A stretch of 64,000 nucleotides of DNA from the sequence record MH560358. One strand, given 5' to 3'. Of this stretch, positions 22,762 through 56,012 are shown piece after piece. The stretch is from Escherichia virus KFS-EC. The first letter of the stretch is position 1. Each line of letters opens with the position of its first letter. The notes under the pieces were generated by a model. It made no database searches, was not told the origin of the DNA, and worked only from the letters and a program-made list of their open reading frames with translations. The translations under genes and the position numbers were made by a program.

Positions 22762-23358
22762 TTAACCCTCTTTCGTCATTAATTGAAAACCACGTTCAGC
22801 TTTTGAAATTTCGCTAGGACTTAAATCGTCACCAACATATTCTAGCATCATTTCTCGGATAATGTCAAGTGCTTTTTCATCACCTGATTTTAACTCGAAC
22901 TCAAGTTCATAGTGAGCCTCTCCCATTCTTTCGCCGACTTTGCAATAATAGAAAGTGTCTTTGCACATTTCCACTATAGCACCCTCAAGGTCAAGTGTCA
23001 ATGACTTGCGGTATGTCATTACTTGAAGTAAAGGAACGATAAGGTCGGAGTTTACGCCTAGACTATCAACATAGTGATAGAAATCATCCGTTGTTGAAAA
23101 AGTAATTTCTTCTCGGTTGAAGAGTCCAGATTCACTATCACCTATTTTGACCATGATCAATGATCTATTAACGTCAAGTCGAGCATAAATTCCTTTTCGA
23201 CGTAGTGCATGATCTTCGGTATCATAATAAAATTCGTGTTTTAGAGTGTTAGCACGATCTACTAGATTGTACCCGTCATACATTGCTACCCACAAATCAC
23301 AGATTGTTTCGACGCCAATTTGTGAGTGTGCATAGTATTTTAATTCAAGTTCTTTCAT
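22762..23358 (-). CDS. CYTH-like (triphosphate tunnel metalloenzyme) domain protein
   Basis: N-terminal ExExK (MKELELKY), central RRKGIYARL...VKI and C-terminal YELEFELK acidic strand pattern. Confidence 0.45.
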   Translation of the reverse strand: MKELELKYYAHSQIGVETICDLWVAMYDGYNLVDRANTLKHEFYYDTEDHALRRKGIYARLDVNRSLIMVKIGDSESGLFNREEITFSTTDDFYHYVDSLGVNSDLIVPLLQVMTYRKSLTLDLEGAIVEMCKDTFYYCKVGERMGEAHYELEFELKSGDEKALDIIREMMLEYVGDDLSPSEISKAERGFQLMTKEG

Positions 23359-23368
23359 ATGTCAACCC

Positions 23369-24316
23369 TTAGAACTCACCAATTTTCTGCAACATTTTAA
23401 CCAACGCATTTGTTACAAAATAGTTATAAATTTTACCGCGTGGTGCTGGTTTAGATTTTTCCCATGCTAACAAAATTTCATATTCGATGTTATCGGGAAT
23501 AAATTCGAAATCAATAAGTTCGCGGTTTTCGTCAAAGCGTCGTGCTTCTTCCTCTGTCATCAAAGACTTTGGATCTTCGGCATCGAAAATTTGCTCTAAC
23601 CATTTGGTTGCAATTGGTTTAGCCCTTTCTCCTTCCAGTCGTGAGATAATGAAATCACTACGGCACTTGATAGAAGCTACACCGTCTTTTGCGTCACCCT
23701 TAACACATTTTACCATAAGGTCTTTGTAAGGGCTACCATATTTGCATTTCTTCCACGCTTTCTGTACTGGCGCCCACTGTTTCACGTTTTTGTATTTGTG
23801 CAACTGTGTGTAGTCACCATCGCCTGAGTTGATCAGCACCTGGCGACCTTCGACAGAAAACTTTTTAGTTAATACAGCGATTATATCATCTGCTTCAACT
23901 TTGTCAACCTTAATAACGTGATAAGGCATGTTCTCTTTAAACTCTTCGGTGATCTTATTGATCGCAGCAAAGATCATCTCCCAATCACGCGGATCTGCGT
24001 CTCGTTTTTCCTTACGGTTGCGTTTATAGTAAGGGGCGATATCACGTCGCCAGTAACCTTTGCTTGAATCAAAAGCAAGTACCGTAATAGGGTATTGCTC
24101 TTTGAATTTTGTCATATTATAACGCATGGTGTCAAGGATAAGATGACGGATCATGCCTTCATTAATAGGATCTTCCGGTTTAAAGGTATGTGAGATAGTA
24201 GCAATCATAAGCTGCGACATATCAATCAAATGCACACCTTCCGGCAGTTTATCTTCTGGATCATCAAAGAAATCATTAAGTGTAGCGGTAGTTTTTGTAA
24301 ACGGGTTATACGTCAT
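23369..24316 (-). CDS. rnh: RNase H / FEN-type 5'-3' exonuclease
   Basis: 315 aa; acidic active-site clusters (GDGDYTQLHKY); T4-like position upstream of the tail-fibre genes. Confidence 0.85.
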   Translation of the reverse strand: MTYNPFTKTTATLNDFFDDPEDKLPEGVHLIDMSQLMIATISHTFKPEDPINEGMIRHLILDTMRYNMTKFKEQYPITVLAFDSSKGYWRRDIAPYYKRNRKEKRDADPRDWEMIFAAINKITEEFKENMPYHVIKVDKVEADDIIAVLTKKFSVEGRQVLINSGDGDYTQLHKYKNVKQWAPVQKAWKKCKYGSPYKDLMVKCVKGDAKDGVASIKCRSDFIISRLEGERAKPIATKWLEQIFDAEDPKSLMTEEEARRFDENRELIDFEFIPDNIEYEILLAWEKSKPAPRGKIYNYFVTNALVKMLQKIGEF

Positions 24317-24318
24317 AA

Positions 24319-24504
24319 TTAAGTTCTCTCCACTCTCACAACAACATATTCGCCAAACGAGTTAGATACTTCACGATCATACCCGTATTTCTCCATAACT
24401 CGCAGAATTGCATTGTTTAATTCGGCACGGAAATAATTGTAATCCTTATCTGGGATTCTGTCAACTATCCATTTTGCACCGTCTGACAAATCAACTTTAA
24501 CCAT
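24319..24504 (-). CDS. hypothetical small protein (61 aa)
   Basis: ORF track. Confidence 0.35.
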   Translation of the reverse strand: MVKVDLSDGAKWIVDRIPDKDYNYFRAELNNAILRVMEKYGYDREVSNSFGEYVVVRVERT

Positions 24505-24510
24505 AATATA

Positions 24511-25092
24511 TCATCCTCTTTTTGGAAAATTTAAATAAGCATACTCGCCAACTATTTCATGTGCTGCACGGTCATAAGCCTTAGCCGCCTCAACTTCTGT
24601 CTCAAAGTATCCTAGATGTATATTCTTTCGATTGATAACAATATACGCCTTCCACGGCTTTTTCTTGCTTGGTGATAATGATACACCTTTATATTTGCTA
24701 TGGCAAGCCTTTTTCTTTGAGACGTTAAACTGATTTTGCTGTTCGGTTGCTTCTCTCATGTTTGACGGTCTATTGTTAGTTTTGTCTTGGTCTATGTGAT
24801 CTATTCGTTCAACCTGAGTACCATACTCTAAAAACCAGACAACTCTATGTACAAACAGATTAAGTTTATGACCATTGTTGTAAAATGTAAAGTATAAATA
24901 TCCTTCTTTATGGAGACATACCCTTACCACATCACCTTTTTTGTATATGGACCCTTCTTTTCGGAATCCAGCAGCTACAGAATCCTTTAAATGGTATAAT
25001 ATTCCATCGACATGATAGAATCTACCTTTTATCGCTTTCTGTGTCTCGATATCCCAAAATTTTGTTTTTGCCACAACAAACACCACACACAA
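24511..25092 (-). CDS. HNH homing endonuclease with C-terminal AP2-like DNA-binding domain
   Basis: HRVVWFLEYG...IDHIDQDKTNNRPSNMREAT (HNH_3) plus YKGVSL...WKAYI...LGYFETEVEAAKAYD (AP2-like). Confidence 0.7.
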   Translation of the reverse strand: MCVVFVVAKTKFWDIETQKAIKGRFYHVDGILYHLKDSVAAGFRKEGSIYKKGDVVRVCLHKEGYLYFTFYNNGHKLNLFVHRVVWFLEYGTQVERIDHIDQDKTNNRPSNMREATEQQNQFNVSKKKACHSKYKGVSLSPSKKKPWKAYIVINRKNIHLGYFETEVEAAKAYDRAAHEIVGEYAYLNFPKRG

Positions 25093-25126
25093 TAAATAAT
25101 TTCATATTATAACAGGAGACCCAATA

Positions 25127-28100
25127 ATGGCAGATTTTTCTCAACATTTCAAGGCCACCTTTGGCTTTGACGCTGGTAATGAAAAGGTCGTCAATGTAGC
25201 ATACGCAGATAAAAACACATCAACGGATGCGGTCAACGTTGAATTTTTCAATTACCATAATGGTATTACTCAGTATGACACAACTCGCGGTTATGATCAA
25301 TACGGAACTACAATCTATCAAAACCGTCCGTATTATGCAAAAGAAGATATCACAAAGCCAGCAGGTGATTTTGACCCGACTAAATGGCAAGCACTGCGCA
25401 CGGACCCACGTTGGGATTATATTGCAGCAACTTCCGGTGATACTCCTTTAAAGTCTGGTGATTATATCGCAGCAGATGGTCAATTTGCAAACTTGACTTT
25501 CTCGATGCCAACTAAACCAGCAGAGGGAGACACTATAACAGTAAAAGATATCGGTGGCAAGTGTGGTGTTAACGAATTATCGTTCTTGAGTTCAGGACAT
25601 GAGTTTTACCATAACGGTAATGTGTATAACCGAAAATGGTATTGCACTACCCCGTATGCAATGAACTATTTCATCTTTGTTCGGAATCGTTGGCATGTTT
25701 ATCAGACGGGAACAGAGCCGCGCGGTGTGTACGCACAGCCAGCGATTGATGCTATTCAAATGCAGAATGGTGATCAGGTATTTCGTCGTAGTTCGTTGGG
25801 TAATATTACCTTAGTGCTTCCTAAGTTTGCCAACAATGGCGACATGATCCAGACTACAGACCTTGACGGATTAACCGCAACCAACCACGTTACGGTTAAA
25901 GTTCATGAGCACGCAGAAGAACAATCAATTGGCACGTCCGGTCTAAAAGAGATTATTGGTAAGCGTAGCGGTCATGGTGTATTCATCTTTGACAAGACGG
26001 AAAACTTATGGCGTTTGTGGGATGGTGATCAGTCTGTTCGTCTTAAACCGATCATCGATGACACTCGCTTGCAACCTAATAGCTATGTTGCTGTATTTGG
26101 TGGTCGTGATGTTACTCTGACGCTGCCAACCAATGTCGAGCCGGGTGATCGTATTCAAGTTTCTATGCAGTATATGCACGGAAACCAGAATTGCCGTATT
26201 ATCACCCCCACAGAGGATACAAAAATCCTTATGCCGAAAAACATGGTTCAGTTTCCGAAGCGTAGCGAGTACCCATTCAACGGGACCGACACATGGAAGG
26301 AAGTGTCTGAATTGTCGTTCAATGCGGCTAGTGATTATGTACCTTATCTGGAGTTCTCTTATTCAGAAGGTGATGATGGTAAGAAATACTGGTTGGTGGC
26401 ACACGCTCATCCGATCGTAGAACGAGTAGATCCGACTCGTAAAGCGCGTGTCGGTGTAATTGCACTGGCTACCCAGACTGAAACGAATAAAAACCATGAA
26501 GAGAATCCTAGCGACGAAGTTGCAGTAACACCAAAAATGCTGGCTAATAAAACAGCCAACGAAACTCGACGCGGTATTGCTCGCATTGCGACTCAAGCGG
26601 AAACGCATCAAGATACTGGTTCCAACTTCATGGATGATGTTATCGTTACGCCTAAAAAGTTAAATGACTGTGTTGCTACCGAAGCCCGTCGTGGTGTGAT
26701 GGAAATTGCAACCCAGCACGAAACCAATGAAGGTTTAGACGATACCCGCGCTATTACTCCTAAGAAATTAGAAGAACGTCGCGCTTCCGAAGATTTAGCT
26801 GGTATTGCTGAAATTGTTCAGGCTGGCGGTAGTGCTGCCGCTCGACGTGGCGAAGCTGGTACAGGGATCTATAACATCAACGACCATGCTAAAATTGTTA
26901 CTCCACAAAACATCAACGAAGTCAAGGCGACAGAAACTTCCCGTGGTGTTGGCTATCTGGCAACTGACGCGGAAGTGCAAGGGGCTACAGAATCAACCCC
27001 GCAAGATGCTTTACTAATCACGACTCGCACGCTAACGAAACGTACTGCTACCGAATCGCGCACTGGTATCGCTGAAATTGCAACCCAGGAAGAAACAAAC
27101 TTAGGTCAAAGTGATAACCATATCATCACGCCTAAAAAGCTGCATACTCGCCGCGCAACGGAAACTTTACATGGTTTAGCAGAAATTGCAACTCAGCCGG
27201 AATTTGATGCAGGTCTTGATGATGCTCGCATTTCTACCCCATTGAAGATTAAAACCTTCTTTGAGAATGCACAGCGTTTGAAAGTAGATCCGACTCAGGG
27301 GCTTAACCTTACTGGTGATTTGTGGCAAGGTATCATGATCAGCGGTCTGGATGCAACCGAAGACACAAAAGGTGTCGCTAAAGTTGCTACTACTCAGCTT
27401 ACGGATGCTGGTCAAGATGATACTACAATCATCACGCCTAAAAAGCTGCAAGGCAAAAAAGCCACCGAAGGTAAAGAAGGTATTATCCGCGTTGGTACTC
27501 AAGACGAAACCGTCGCTGGTACTATGGACAATGTAGCAATTTCGCCTAAAAACTTCAAATATGTTGTTCAGACAGAAGAAACATGGCAAGCAACGGAAGC
27601 CCGTCGCGGATTCCTGAAAGTAGCAACACAAGAAAACTGTTTTGTTGGTGATAATCTGCAAGGTTCTACTCAAGAGCTTGATGAATATCAGCATGATGGG
27701 ATTGCGGTAACTCCGAAAGGATTAAACTACGCACTTGCTAATTTCTTACCTAAAATGGCAACCGCTCAGAATAGTTTGAAATTGGGTAACGTAGAGGCCG
27801 CTAAATGGGCGCGTAGAGACATTGACCAGACCATTGAGAGCAATTACACGTTTAATAAAAACGTTAACTTGAAGGGCGATTTAGAGTGCTTAAAATCCGG
27901 TTCCTTTGAAACTCTGTTTGTGACTAAGAACTCGACTGACGATCCGAGTAATGGTCATCTGGTATTGGGTGAGCGTGGAGTTGACGGTCACACCGGAATT
28001 ACTCTGCATGGCACAACCTTGTCAGAAGGTATGGAAAACTCATGGTCTATTATCGTTGGTGGTACTGGAACGGCGCAAGCAGTTAATAGTGATGCTATCG

Positions 28101-28867
28101 CTTTCTGTAAGATTGACGATTCTGGATCTGTTGAGCATTATGCCTTTGCTATGGAACGTGACGGCGATGCGTTAGCATATAGAGACTTCATAGCAGGTCG
28201 TAACCTGTATGCGAAACAAGGCGGTTTATATATTGTAGACCACGCCAATCCGGCAATGACTCGCTCTACAGACGGTATGTTGAATATCGGTCACGGTGGA
28301 AGTGTTAACATCAAAGCCGGTTATCAGAATCTGACTACAGAGATCGCAGGACAGAAATACCAGATCGTTCACGCAGGAAACGCAGACGAAGTTCTCGACC
28401 GTCAGTTTGTCAAGAATGCTGGCGATACGATGACCGGAAAGCTGATTATGGATAATGCGCCTATTGTTTCTGTTAAGCATGAGGCTATCGCGGCAACCGC
28501 TCCGGCAATCGGTAACATCGGTTTCTGGAACATGCGAGTAACTACCCAAAACATCAAAGAAACCTATCCAGAGAAGAAAAACGGCACATTGATGCAATGG
28601 GGTACTGATGAAAACGGCCTTACCCAAATCTGGTCGCCTGATGGTACTCATAAGCATTATATCCGTTCCGGTACAGATGGTCAATGGACCGCATGGGGCG
28701 AAATTTACACCAAACAGAACAAGCCTACCGCTCAGGAAATCGGGGCAGTTGTTGCCGAAGGTGGATTGATGAACTCTATGACGGTTCGTGACTGGATCAA
28801 GGTTGGTAATGTTAAAATTATTGCCAATAATCTGACTCGTACCGTAGATTTTATCTGGGAAGACTAA
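25127..28867 (+). CDS. 34: long tail fibre proximal subunit
   Basis: 1246 aa; repeated ATE-RRG-IAEIATQ motifs; first gene of the plus-strand tail-fibre module. Confidence 0.85.
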   Translation: MADFSQHFKATFGFDAGNEKVVNVAYADKNTSTDAVNVEFFNYHNGITQYDTTRGYDQYGTTIYQNRPYYAKEDITKPAGDFDPTKWQALRTDPRWDYIAATSGDTPLKSGDYIAADGQFANLTFSMPTKPAEGDTITVKDIGGKCGVNELSFLSSGHEFYHNGNVYNRKWYCTTPYAMNYFIFVRNRWHVYQTGTEPRGVYAQPAIDAIQMQNGDQVFRRSSLGNITLVLPKFANNGDMIQTTDLDGLTATNHVTVKVHEHAEEQSIGTSGLKEIIGKRSGHGVFIFDKTENLWRLWDGDQSVRLKPIIDDTRLQPNSYVAVFGGRDVTLTLPTNVEPGDRIQVSMQYMHGNQNCRIITPTEDTKILMPKNMVQFPKRSEYPFNGTDTWKEVSELSFNAASDYVPYLEFSYSEGDDGKKYWLVAHAHPIVERVDPTRKARVGVIALATQTETNKNHEENPSDEVAVTPKMLANKTANETRRGIARIATQAETHQDTGSNFMDDVIVTPKKLNDCVATEARRGVMEIATQHETNEGLDDTRAITPKKLEERRASEDLAGIAEIVQAGGSAAARRGEAGTGIYNINDHAKIVTPQNINEVKATETSRGVGYLATDAEVQGATESTPQDALLITTRTLTKRTATESRTGIAEIATQEETNLGQSDNHIITPKKLHTRRATETLHGLAEIATQPEFDAGLDDARISTPLKIKTFFENAQRLKVDPTQGLNLTGDLWQGIMISGLDATEDTKGVAKVATTQLTDAGQDDTTIITPKKLQGKKATEGKEGIIRVGTQDETVAGTMDNVAISPKNFKYVVQTEETWQATEARRGFLKVATQENCFVGDNLQGSTQELDEYQHDGIAVTPKGLNYALANFLPKMATAQNSLKLGNVEAAKWARRDIDQTIESNYTFNKNVNLKGDLECLKSGSFETLFVTKNSTDDPSNGHLVLGERGVDGHTGITLHGTTLSEGMENSWSIIVGGTGTAQAVNSDAIAFCKIDDSGSVEHYAFAMERDGDALAYRDFIAGRNLYAKQGGLYIVDHANPAMTRSTDGMLNIGHGGSVNIKAGYQNLTTEIAGQKYQIVHAGNADEVLDRQFVKNAGDTMTGKLIMDNAPIVSVKHEAIAATAPAIGNIGFWNMRVTTQNIKETYPEKKNGTLMQWGTDENGLTQIWSPDGTHKHYIRSGTDGQWTAWGEIYTKQNKPTAQEIGAVVAEGGLMNSMTVRDWIKVGNVKIIANNLTRTVDFIWED

Positions 28868-53795: not shown

Positions 53796-53864
53796 AATAA
53801 AAAAGCCTCCAATCTTTCGACGGGAGGCATAATAAAACCATTATAGAGTAGTGTCAACTAATTT

Positions 53865-54383
53865 TTAGTAGCCGCGTTCTTGACGGGCGAAGTTTTCAGC
53901 ATTTTTCAGATAGTACAGCTTGAAGATATCCTTAGCGGTTAAACCTAAGCCCAGCATTTTAATCAGCACAAAATGCCAGATATCGATCAATTCCATCGAA
54001 ATTTCGGTTTTATCGTCATCTGACAGGTCAGCAAATTTACGCGATCGTGCTTCGCCGTGGTTTTTCTTCCACACTTTAGTAATTGCGCTTGCATCTTTGC
54101 CATTTGACATGCCACCCAGGGCAACATAAAGTTCTCGTGTCTCGTCGTCGATTGCGTCATCCCACAACTTCATCCAGTCAAGGATTTCTCCACAAGTTTC
54201 CAGCTTATCAGGATGCGGCACCCACTCAAATTTATCAGCTAGTGCGACCTGTAATCCTTTTTGCATATCTAACATTACTTGCAGCGGATCTTTGCCGCTA
54301 GTGATTGCCTCGGAATACGCAATACCAGCTTTAGACATAGTTTCATCATTAACAAGACCAGCACAAGAATTAAATTCACTCAT
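53865..54383 (-). CDS. 56: NTP pyrophosphatase, gp56 (dCTPase/dUTPase)-like
   Basis: 172 aa; position adjacent to gene 61; conserved C-terminal LYYLKNAENFARQERGY; start at internal ATG. Confidence 0.6.
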   Translation of the reverse strand: MSEFNSCAGLVNDETMSKAGIAYSEAITSGKDPLQVMLDMQKGLQVALADKFEWVPHPDKLETCGEILDWMKLWDDAIDDETRELYVALGGMSNGKDASAITKVWKKNHGEARSRKFADLSDDDKTEISMELIDIWHFVLIKMLGLGLTAKDIFKLYYLKNAENFARQERGY

Positions 54384-54393
54384 AATAAACCTC

Positions 54394-54957
54394 TCAAATA
54401 ACATTAAACACTGCAAATTCACCGTGATACTTATACGCATAGTCATTATATACTATTGCGGCGTCTATTTCTAGGTCAAATTGTCCTATATAGACTTTAT
54501 TTCCTTCATTGTCCCTTATCTGGGCGACCCATTTACCCGAACGACTATTATAATGCACTCCTTTAAAATTGCTAGTTTTAGTTTGGTTATTTCTTCTCAT
54601 ATTTTGGGTATTCTGTTTTTGTGTCGCCTCTCTTAAGTTTGGAGGGTCGTTGTTTTCTGGATTCCCGTCAATATGGTCAATGACAGGTGGGCAATACCCA
54701 TGCTCTAAGAAGAATACTATTCTATGCACAAGCTCAAAATATTGTTTTCCTTCAAAAGAAAACGAGACTTTTAGGTGTCCGGCTGTGACTTTAGATACCT
54801 TTACTATATCACCAACCTTATAAAACTGGCCTTCTTTCGTCGTTCGGCTTGCTTTGCTGTTTGTTTTATGAATCAATATACCACTTTCGTGTCTATATCT
54901 TCGACGTATTTCATCCTTTAGTTCATCGCTCCATTCTTTGGCTTTCCTTACCCTCAC
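54394..54957 (-). CDS. HNH homing endonuclease with C-terminal AP2-like domain
   Basis: HRIVFFLEHG...IDHIDGNPENNDPPNLREAT plus FKGVHY...WVAQI...IGQFDLEIDAAIVYN; paralog of 24511-25092. Confidence 0.7.
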   Translation of the reverse strand: MRVRKAKEWSDELKDEIRRRYRHESGILIHKTNSKASRTTKEGQFYKVGDIVKVSKVTAGHLKVSFSFEGKQYFELVHRIVFFLEHGYCPPVIDHIDGNPENNDPPNLREATQKQNTQNMRRNNQTKTSNFKGVHYNSRSGKWVAQIRDNEGNKVYIGQFDLEIDAAIVYNDYAYKYHGEFAVFNVI

Positions 54958-54974
54958 AATACAACCCTCATTAA

Positions 54975-56003
54975 TTAAAATTTACAATATTTCATAAACC
55001 GCATTTTAGCCATCAGACCTTGTACGGTGTTCTCTTTGATATATTCCATGATCTGGTCGCGTGTAGCGCCCTCGTCCTGAATCATGGCGTTAACGTCTTT
55101 AGAATGCCACGGGCAACGGTCCCACAATACAATCTTTTCCCCTGCATTGATAAACTTTTCCAGTCGGTGCATTGTATCGGCAGACCGTGGTTCCGCATCA
55201 AGTACAAACACTCGCTGGTCTGGGAAAGGGATTTCATCTAATCCCAAAGTACCGCCAGTAATTGCACACCCGTTATCAATAAACAATGAATCGATCGGAC
55301 CTTCTAAGAAATACACTGGTTTACTCGGATCGGCGCGTTCAAGACCATAGACCTTACTCGCTAACTCGTGAGTTTTAATCGTCATATATTTGGTCTTTCC
55401 GTAATCCTTTCTCAATGCTCGCCCCTGAATGGATTCTATCTTGTTCTCGCGGTTAAAGATAGGAATCACTAAACGTGGTTCAGGTTGTGGATTCTTGAAA
55501 GTATCAGCCTTAATGTGATTTGCTACCTTTTGCCATTCTCTCGTGAAATACAGAAGATCCCATTTATCGTGAGGGATGCAACGATCACTGACATACTTTA
55601 TTATAGGATGATTAGCCGGAAGAGTATCTAATCTCTCGCAGAAAGGCAATGTTTGCACTTTCTTAATCTCCGACTTTTCTACCTTTTTCAGTGGCTTGAA
55701 CGTGGTGTTCTTGTGGTCGCCTTGTTCCTTCCGTCGTTCCATAAGCCATTCCCTGAATAGGTCCGGCTTATACTGTTTGAGAAATTCACCTAACGGCTGA
55801 TTGTAGTTACAGTTGAAACAGCCGCAACGCAAACTATCCTTATAGGTATAGATACGGAATCGCGCTTGAGTATGATTTTTCTTTGAGTCACCGCAGATCG
55901 GACAACTACAGACCAGCGTAAATGAGCTAGTATGCAACCGTTTAAAATTTCGTTCGCCGTATATGGCTTTTTCCGCTATTTCATAATCTGCGTAGTAAAT
56001 CAT
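54975..56003 (-). CDS. 61: DNA primase
   Basis: Zinc ribbon CPICGDSKKN...CFNC plus TOPRIM region; 342 aa. Confidence 0.9.
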   Translation of the reverse strand: MIYYADYEIAEKAIYGERNFKRLHTSSFTLVCSCPICGDSKKNHTQARFRIYTYKDSLRCGCFNCNYNQPLGEFLKQYKPDLFREWLMERRKEQGDHKNTTFKPLKKVEKSEIKKVQTLPFCERLDTLPANHPIIKYVSDRCIPHDKWDLLYFTREWQKVANHIKADTFKNPQPEPRLVIPIFNRENKIESIQGRALRKDYGKTKYMTIKTHELASKVYGLERADPSKPVYFLEGPIDSLFIDNGCAITGGTLGLDEIPFPDQRVFVLDAEPRSADTMHRLEKFINAGEKIVLWDRCPWHSKDVNAMIQDEGATRDQIMEYIKENTVQGLMAKMRFMKYCKF

Positions 56004-56012
56004 AATAACCTC

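Follow-up and report, generated by a model that had tools for sequence, protein, structure and literature searches.

Two short genes in the DNA of Escherichia virus KFS-EC (record MH560358), here designated HEG1 and HEG2, are very probably (a probability of roughly 0.85) free-standing HNH-AP2 homing endonuclease genes that are mobile in Krischvirus now, or were recently, by intronless homing. The window, i.e., the whole analysed stretch of 64,000 nucleotides, is part of a Krischvirus, an RB49-like, T4-type coliphage. Intronless homing, proposed in the initial annotation, agrees with four lines of evidence described below: precise insertion junctions, flank haplotypes that co-segregate with the inserts, inserts that are less diverged than their surroundings, and decayed HEG1 copies in phages PHB13 and FL20. 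Nuclease activity and homing of the two proteins are what we infer from these comparisons. The finding is correct and already known: the class was described between 2004 and 2010, and near-identical orthologs (98–99.5% identical to HEG1 or HEG2) are already in the databases, mostly under the label of homing or HNH endonuclease. The discovery value is accordingly small, as the feature is an ordinary, previously annotated one. In the literature searched, no HNH-AP2 gene of the T4 group has been the subject of a cleavage or homing experiment, and the exact empty and occupied junctions, together with the flank haplotypes, would serve as substrates and yield predictions when a T4-type HNH-AP2 enzyme is first tested biochemically.

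At the first locus, the features are as follows.

24319..24504, minus strand: 61-aa ORF (homolog of RB49ORF246c), adjoining rnh; it follows directly after HEG1, and its Shine-Dalgarno sequence shares bases with the stop region of HEG1
24511..25074, minus strand: HEG1 coding sequence, 187 aa from GTG 25074
24523..25113, no strand: locus 1 cassette, whose 591 bp stand where RB49 has 43 bp of intergenic DNA
25084..25113, no strand: remnant, in diverged form (about 65% identity to empty-site phages by manual alignment), of the native spacer between ORF246c and gene 34
25127..28867, plus strand: gene 34, for the proximal subunit of the long tail fibre; transcribed divergently from HEG1
25203..25225, plus strand: haplotype block in gene 34 codons 26–33, differing at 12 of 23 bp and in 3 amino acids

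The open reading frame 24511–25092 reported in the initial annotation does exist, on the minus strand; its outer end, 25092, is the TTG of the maximal frame, and the likely start is GTG 25074. This start is favoured by the annotation of the orthologs in ELT4, pEJ01, G37-3, and PTE-Eco09 as 564-nt coding sequences, by a Shine-Dalgarno sequence that precedes it in the relatives, and by the resulting length of 187 aa, the same as that of HEG2. The alignment of HEG1 with HEG2 also starts at this GTG. The Shine-Dalgarno sequence is GAGGT in the relatives and GTGGT in the window, and the weaker form may keep the expression of HEG1 low here. The position of HEG1 had been given as between rnh and gene 34. 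This is right on the gene 34 side, whereas on the other side the 61-aa ORF intervenes, and rnh is not the direct neighbour.

The junctions of locus 1 were set by anchor-based exact matching and a 12-genome alignment. The native sequence at 24511–24522 supplies the last four HEG1 codons and the stop, and doubles as the Shine-Dalgarno sequence of the downstream ORF. At the other end, the remnant at 25084–25113 occurs in this version only in HEG1 carriers. In all of them, AATAAATA at 25091–25098 replaces the late-promoter octamer of gene 34, TATAAATA, that is found at empty sites, and on the minus strand the remnant holds an extended -10 element (TGTTATAAT) upstream of HEG1. Within HEG1 itself, a perfect TATAAATA occurs on the plus strand (24893–24900); it is antisense to HEG1 and precedes the start of gene 34 by 227 nt. 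As a significant feature this copy was discarded, since chance alone would give 5.4 octamer matches in 64 kb and 3 are seen. Late transcription of gene 34 in carriers may start within HEG1. A separate observation concerns the minus strand at 25216–25231. Upstream of the promoter region of HEG1, the carrier-type gene 34 block forms there a weak hairpin that, with the T-run after it (CGCATCCGTTGATGTG TTTTTAT), resembles a terminator. The scan for terminator-like sites found one such site, with 0.7 expected by chance; by inspection, haplotype B of gene 34, the version of the empty-site phages kaaroe and RB49 (JSE has haplotype A), is without the T-run seen in the carrier-type block.

The second locus comprises the following features.

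53865..54383, minus strand: gene 56 (dCTPase), 172 aa, from ATG 54383
54345..54380, minus strand: gene 56 codons 2–13, with six strictly synonymous changes (TCA>AGT, CTG>CTT, AAC>AAT, GAC>GAT)
54384..54965, no strand: locus 2 cassette, 582 bp replacing ATTCA in the 14-bp gene 61/gene 56 spacer of empty-site phages
54394..54957, minus strand: HEG2 coding sequence, 187 aa, with a GTG start after GAGGG
54975..56003, minus strand: gene 61 (DNA primase), upstream neighbour of HEG2

HEG2 has exactly the coordinates first given for it, to which the strand (minus) can be added, and its neighbours are, as claimed, gene 61 and gene 56, both conserved. The old gene 56 Shine-Dalgarno sequence (TTAATGAGG) now serves HEG2, and gene 56 has a new one, GAGAGG, that comes with the cassette and overlaps the HEG2 stop codon. 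The longer frame listed there, from 54446, runs into HEG2 and is not gene 56 as annotated. At both loci the cassette slots between a ribosome-binding region and the start of a conserved gene, and HEG1 and HEG2 are therefore probably expressed from host transcripts. The GC contents of the HEG1 and HEG2 inserts are 35.5% and 37.3%, respectively, compared with 40.5% for the window and 39.9–45.0% for the neighbouring genes.

Comparison with related phages revealed that both sites are usually empty. Using a 6.2-kb stretch around locus 1, we retrieved 57 phage records at 90–99% identity, all of them RB49, JSE, Phi1, or ECD7-type coliphages, from a collection of 50,697 records; a 3.7-kb stretch around locus 2 retrieved the identical set. 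HEG1 is present in seven of these records (ELT4, PHB13, FL20, pEJ01, FL15, G37-3, and PTE-Eco09), and the site is empty in the other 50. HEG2 is present in six (G2494, phiS, ELT3, AV108, TB34, and SAP), leaving 51 empty. The insertions are thus far from universal among the relatives. Both genes are, as first described, free-standing insertions between conserved genes, namely ORF246c and gene 34 or gene 61 and gene 56, and the remaining records are cleanly empty. The junctions of both cassettes are identical in every carrier examined. Scans of IMG/VR with RNase H and gp56 as queries matched distant T4-like contigs almost exclusively; just two Krischvirus loci spanning the locus 1 junction were recovered, and both are empty. 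None of the 50,697 phage records contains HEG1 and HEG2 together. Since the two carrier sets are disjoint, the window represents a mosaic that is absent from that collection.

A patchy distribution of this kind could in principle also be left by ancestral insertions that were deleted repeatedly, the genes being immobile relics that were never gained through an endonuclease. Decayed copies, which such a history would accommodate, do occur. In PHB13 (L086) and FL20 (L087), HEG1 is a pseudogene whose N-terminal half is frameshifted and contains stop codons; the HNH and AP2 parts are still readable, and the records annotate just truncated fragments. The native spacer, however, is the same and intact at all sampled empty sites, with the TATAAATA late promoter at locus 1 and the 14-bp gene 61/gene 56 spacer at locus 2, and independent deletions would not recreate such uniform sequences. 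The divergence of the cassettes also argues against repeated deletion. In the five carriers whose HEG1 is intact, mean divergence is 0.2% for the cassette, 2.3% for the 600 bp next to it, and about 4% farther out in the flanks; the HEG2 cassette diverges by 0.46% among its carriers, against 0.9–3.0% in its flanks. The cassettes are thus 2–20 times less diverged than the flanks, on carrier backgrounds that differ by 3–6%. These comparisons indicate recent lateral spread rather than old vertical inheritance, and we regard repeated loss as highly improbable. Homing accounts for the decayed copies as well, as the frameshifted genes of PHB13 and FL20 fit what is expected late in a homing cycle.

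Genome comparison further indicates that flanking markers were co-converted with the cassettes. PTE-Eco09, a carrier, and kaaroe, which has an empty site, differ within 23873–26057 only by the cassette, the 23-bp gene 34 block, and three single sites. This near-isogenic pair sets bounds on the co-conversion tract. The block encodes AYADKNTST in the window and ALADKNVNT in most empty-site phages. It is found in all seven HEG1 carriers and in about 12 distinct empty-site phages (e.g., JSE and MIZ2-6), an association with HEG1 carriage of P about 4e-4 when relatedness is ignored. As a strict marker of HEG1 the block was rejected on account of these empty-site phages, in which it could, on the contrary, be a footprint of loss, a point in favour of the repeated deletion weighed above. 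On the reading preferred here, the block would be a marker converted along with the cassette and a candidate for the region that HEG1 recognises or cleaves, although its presence in about 12 empty-site phages means that it may be merely a linked allele rather than a target. At locus 2, the six synonymous changes in gene 56 are present in all six HEG2 carriers and the window, and in none of the eight empty-site records with the same gene 56 allele (P about 3e-4, relatedness ignored); they were absent from the other gene 56 alleles sampled. Gene 56 codons 2–13 would accordingly represent a co-conversion tract and a candidate recognition site of HEG2. The substitutions that co-segregate with the cassettes could also be passive hitch-hikers from the donor and not immunity mutations.

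The initial annotation assigned an HNH_3 nuclease motif and an AP2-type DNA-binding domain to both proteins, and Pfam matches bear out both domains. The HNH_3 matches (E 1.6e-12 for HEG1 and 9.2e-14 for HEG2) are both above the curated cutoff. For AP2, HEG1 scored 34.0 bits against a cutoff of 33.3, and HEG2 scored 29.9 bits, just below the cutoff, with E 7e-7. The AP2 half in addition matched solved plant AP2/ERF domains with E 3.4e-8 (HEG1) and 9.1e-8 (HEG2); HNH-AP2 homing enzymes are the presumed ancestors of the plant AP2/ERF DNA-binding domains. In HEG1, HNH_3 covers approximately residues 74–115 and AP2 approximately 126–176 of 187; in HEG2 they cover residues 76–117 and 130–179. The AP2 halves of HEG1 and HEG2 also align with each other. 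Both proteins also match phrog_99 'HNH endonuclease' (E 1.7e-46 and 1.3e-44), and no NCBIfam model was found for either. We regard the domain assignments as settled by the Pfam, PHROG, and PDB matches.

The closest solved nuclease is I-HmuI (PDB 1U3E) of Bacillus phage SPO1, to which full-length HEG1 and HEG2 align with E 1.2e-5 to 3.9e-4. The alignment spans the beta-sheet region and the HNH motif, and the sequence identity is low. Residues D74, H75, N87, and N96 of I-HmuI, which we take to be the metal ligands and the general base, correspond in the alignment to D92, H93, N105, and N114 of HEG1 and to D94, H95, N107, and N116 of HEG2. Both proteins have a nuclease domain of the His-Me finger type, like I-HmuI, and because these catalytic residues are in place they look catalytically competent. 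Enzymes of the I-HmuI type are nickases, and the single active site, as in I-HmuI, makes nicking the default expectation. I-HmuI is an intron-encoded HNH homing endonuclease, whereas HEG1 and HEG2 are free-standing. The C-terminal DNA-binding part of I-HmuI is helical (helix-turn-helix), not AP2. In Pfam, neither NUMOD4 nor a helix-turn-helix domain was found in HEG1 or HEG2, so by domain content both combine an I-HmuI-like active site with a place outside the NUMOD4, HNH_3, and helix-turn-helix architecture.

The retained active site also bears on whether the two proteins have been domesticated, that is, whether they mainly serve the phage by cutting or excluding competitors, or as AP2-type regulators, with no selfish homing. 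A pure regulator would have no need of the HNH catalytic residues, which both proteins keep. Most relatives dispense with either gene, and HEG1 has become a pseudogene in two of its seven carriers in the collection, both points against domestication. Domestication would nevertheless fit the placement of both genes within host operons, where they share ribosome-binding sites with essential neighbours, and it has precedents: AP2 domains have been co-opted as phage-encoded repressors (CasPRs), and T4 homing endonucleases mediate the partial exclusion of T2 (reviewed in PMC2993671). Exclusion of competitors is, however, itself a product of homing and does not define a distinct mechanism. On balance, domestication seems to us improbable, if somewhat less so than repeated loss.

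HEG1 and HEG2 are clearly related to each other. They share 39% identity over 184 residues (E 7e-38), far past chance, and the motifs quoted at the outset for their extended similarity, HRVVWFLEYG...IDHIDQD in HEG1 and HRIVFFLEHG...IDHIDGN in HEG2, are present. A tblastn search of the window found no third paralog. The description of the two genes as paralogous holds in the sense of a common family but does not extend to a duplication within this genome, as each is nearer to genes at other loci. HEG1, whose family matches comprise 2,040 phage records, is 53% identical to RB16 'homing endonuclease 2' and to Slopekvirus homologs beside gene 46, and 51–53% identical to genes at two other Krischvirus loci (phiS, AV108, and G5211). 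At three further Krischvirus loci, HEG2 has relatives of 46.5%, 44.6%, and 42% identity; the first lies at about 3.2 kb in JSE-like phages, and the last is RB49ORF040c. As both genes have closer relatives elsewhere, we conclude that HEG1 and HEG2 arrived independently and did not arise by duplication. Were they true recent paralogs, one copy having been transposed to the second locus, their equal length of 187 aa, shared architecture, GTG start, and similar 5' leader (GAGG, 7–8 nt, GTG) would be readily understood. An identity of just 39%, lower than that of each gene to its matches elsewhere, is difficult to reconcile with such an origin, and the lack of any record in the collection with both genes points to separate arrival. 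We give recent duplication almost no weight.

The two genes closely resemble known systems. HNH-AP2 homing endonuclease genes were reportedly defined by Magnani et al. in 2004. Nolan et al. (2006) noted HNH-AP2 genes in RB49 and RB43 (PMC1524935), and Petrov et al. (2010) counted one in RB49, two in JSE, three in RB43, and six in RB16 (PMC2993671). The T4-related members (RB49ORF040c, RB16 'homing endonuclease 2', and those of RB43, JSE, and KP15) share with HEG1 and HEG2 an N-terminal HNH_3 domain, a C-terminal AP2 domain, and a length of approximately 180–190 aa. They too are free-standing genes placed between conserved ones in this phage group; the insertion sites differ: ORF246c/gene 34 for HEG1 and gene 61/gene 56 for HEG2, but beside gene 46 for the RB16 member and at about 26.4 kb for the RB49 member. 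The best tblastn matches of HEG1 and HEG2 include no T4 record. The 'mob-like HNH' genes, to which the T4 Mob proteins belong, and the HNH-AP2 genes form separate categories in Petrov et al. (PMC2993671). In ICP1, a Vibrio phage, the IPA-HNH genes described by Barth et al. (2023) form a divergent branch (PMC10448857). Like HEG1 and HEG2, they combine an N-terminal HNH with a C-terminal AP2 domain (PMC10448857); their HNH is too divergent for Pfam HNH_3 (PMC10448857), which HEG1 and HEG2 match strongly. The ICP1 genes lie at the borders of segments that related phages exchange, and a frameshift has inactivated one of the copies (PMC10448857), features that parallel the mosaic gene 56 and the decayed HEG1 copies of PHB13 and FL20.

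The same genetic logic is seen in the free-standing genes of T4, namely SegF beside gene 56, SegG at gene 32, and MobE at nrdB. Gene 56, which adjoins HEG2, is a target of SegF as well; unlike HEG1 and HEG2, the Seg proteins belong to the GIY-YIG enzymes. In T4 intronless homing, a gene located between conserved genes brings about cleavage within or close to the neighbouring gene of a relative, and repair is accompanied by co-conversion of the flanks (PMC2993671).

The proposed homing of HEG1 and HEG2 would take place in a cell co-infected by a carrier and a relative lacking the gene. The AP2 domain and the N-terminal (beta) region would place the single HNH active site near the empty site, and the nuclease would introduce a nick or a staggered break, a nick being converted to a double-strand break through replication. 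T4-type recombination-dependent repair would then use the carrier genome as its template, transferring the cassette along with nearby markers. Both the recognition regions and the basis of carrier immunity are best sought, in our view, in the clustered substitutions specific to carriers. For HEG2, the recognition region would likely comprise the gene 61/gene 56 spacer and gene 56 codons 2–13; for HEG1, it would likely be the ORF246c/gene 34 intergenic region, possibly with gene 34 codons 26–33. Carriers would be protected by the insertion itself together with the clustered adjacent substitutions.

The surroundings of HEG2 show a marked contrast in divergence. The gene 56 allele of the window is 71% identical to the RB49/Sf20/ECD7 allele and 58% identical to the JSE allele, whereas srd, modB, and gene 61, which flank gene 56, are 96–99.9% identical in the same genomes. 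One possible, though tentative, explanation is that the flank haplotypes are the actual recognition sites of HEG1 and HEG2, and that repeated attack around gene 56 by three different homing endonuclease families drives the extreme divergence of gene 56 alleles (58–71% identity) in genomes that are otherwise 96–99.9% identical. If this were true, the phage group would offer the first tractable system for measuring target recognition by an AP2 domain in a homing enzyme, and would also allow the endonuclease-driven diversification of an essential gene to be measured.

Gene 56 (53865–54383) is a sharply bounded hypervariable cassette amid three homing endonuclease insertion sites, and the region of genes 61 and 56 is a homing endonuclease hotspot in which other families occupy adjacent sites in relatives. 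The hotspot is relevant to how homing elements shape the mosaicism of phage genomes. Both other hotspot sites (approximately 56004–56012 and 53796–53864) are empty in the window. An unrelated gene of the ECD7 type, with NUMOD4, HNH_3, and HTH_7, lies just upstream of gene 61 in ECD7, KMB43, and FL20. TB34 and SAP have this gene as well, alongside HEG2. In JSE and G37-3, a gene for a 306-aa protein containing NUMOD3 lies on the opposite strand between modB and gene 56. The hotspot genes of relatives are found at loci L005:3335-3898, L006:3912-4475, and L007:1815-2735.

One further gene of the window was noted. The minus strand at 22762–23358 encodes a 198-aa protein with a CYTH domain (Pfam E 2.5e-6), a homolog of RB49ORF244c. 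Its counterparts in relatives are labelled hypothetical protein, adenylate cyclase, or inorganic triphosphatase.
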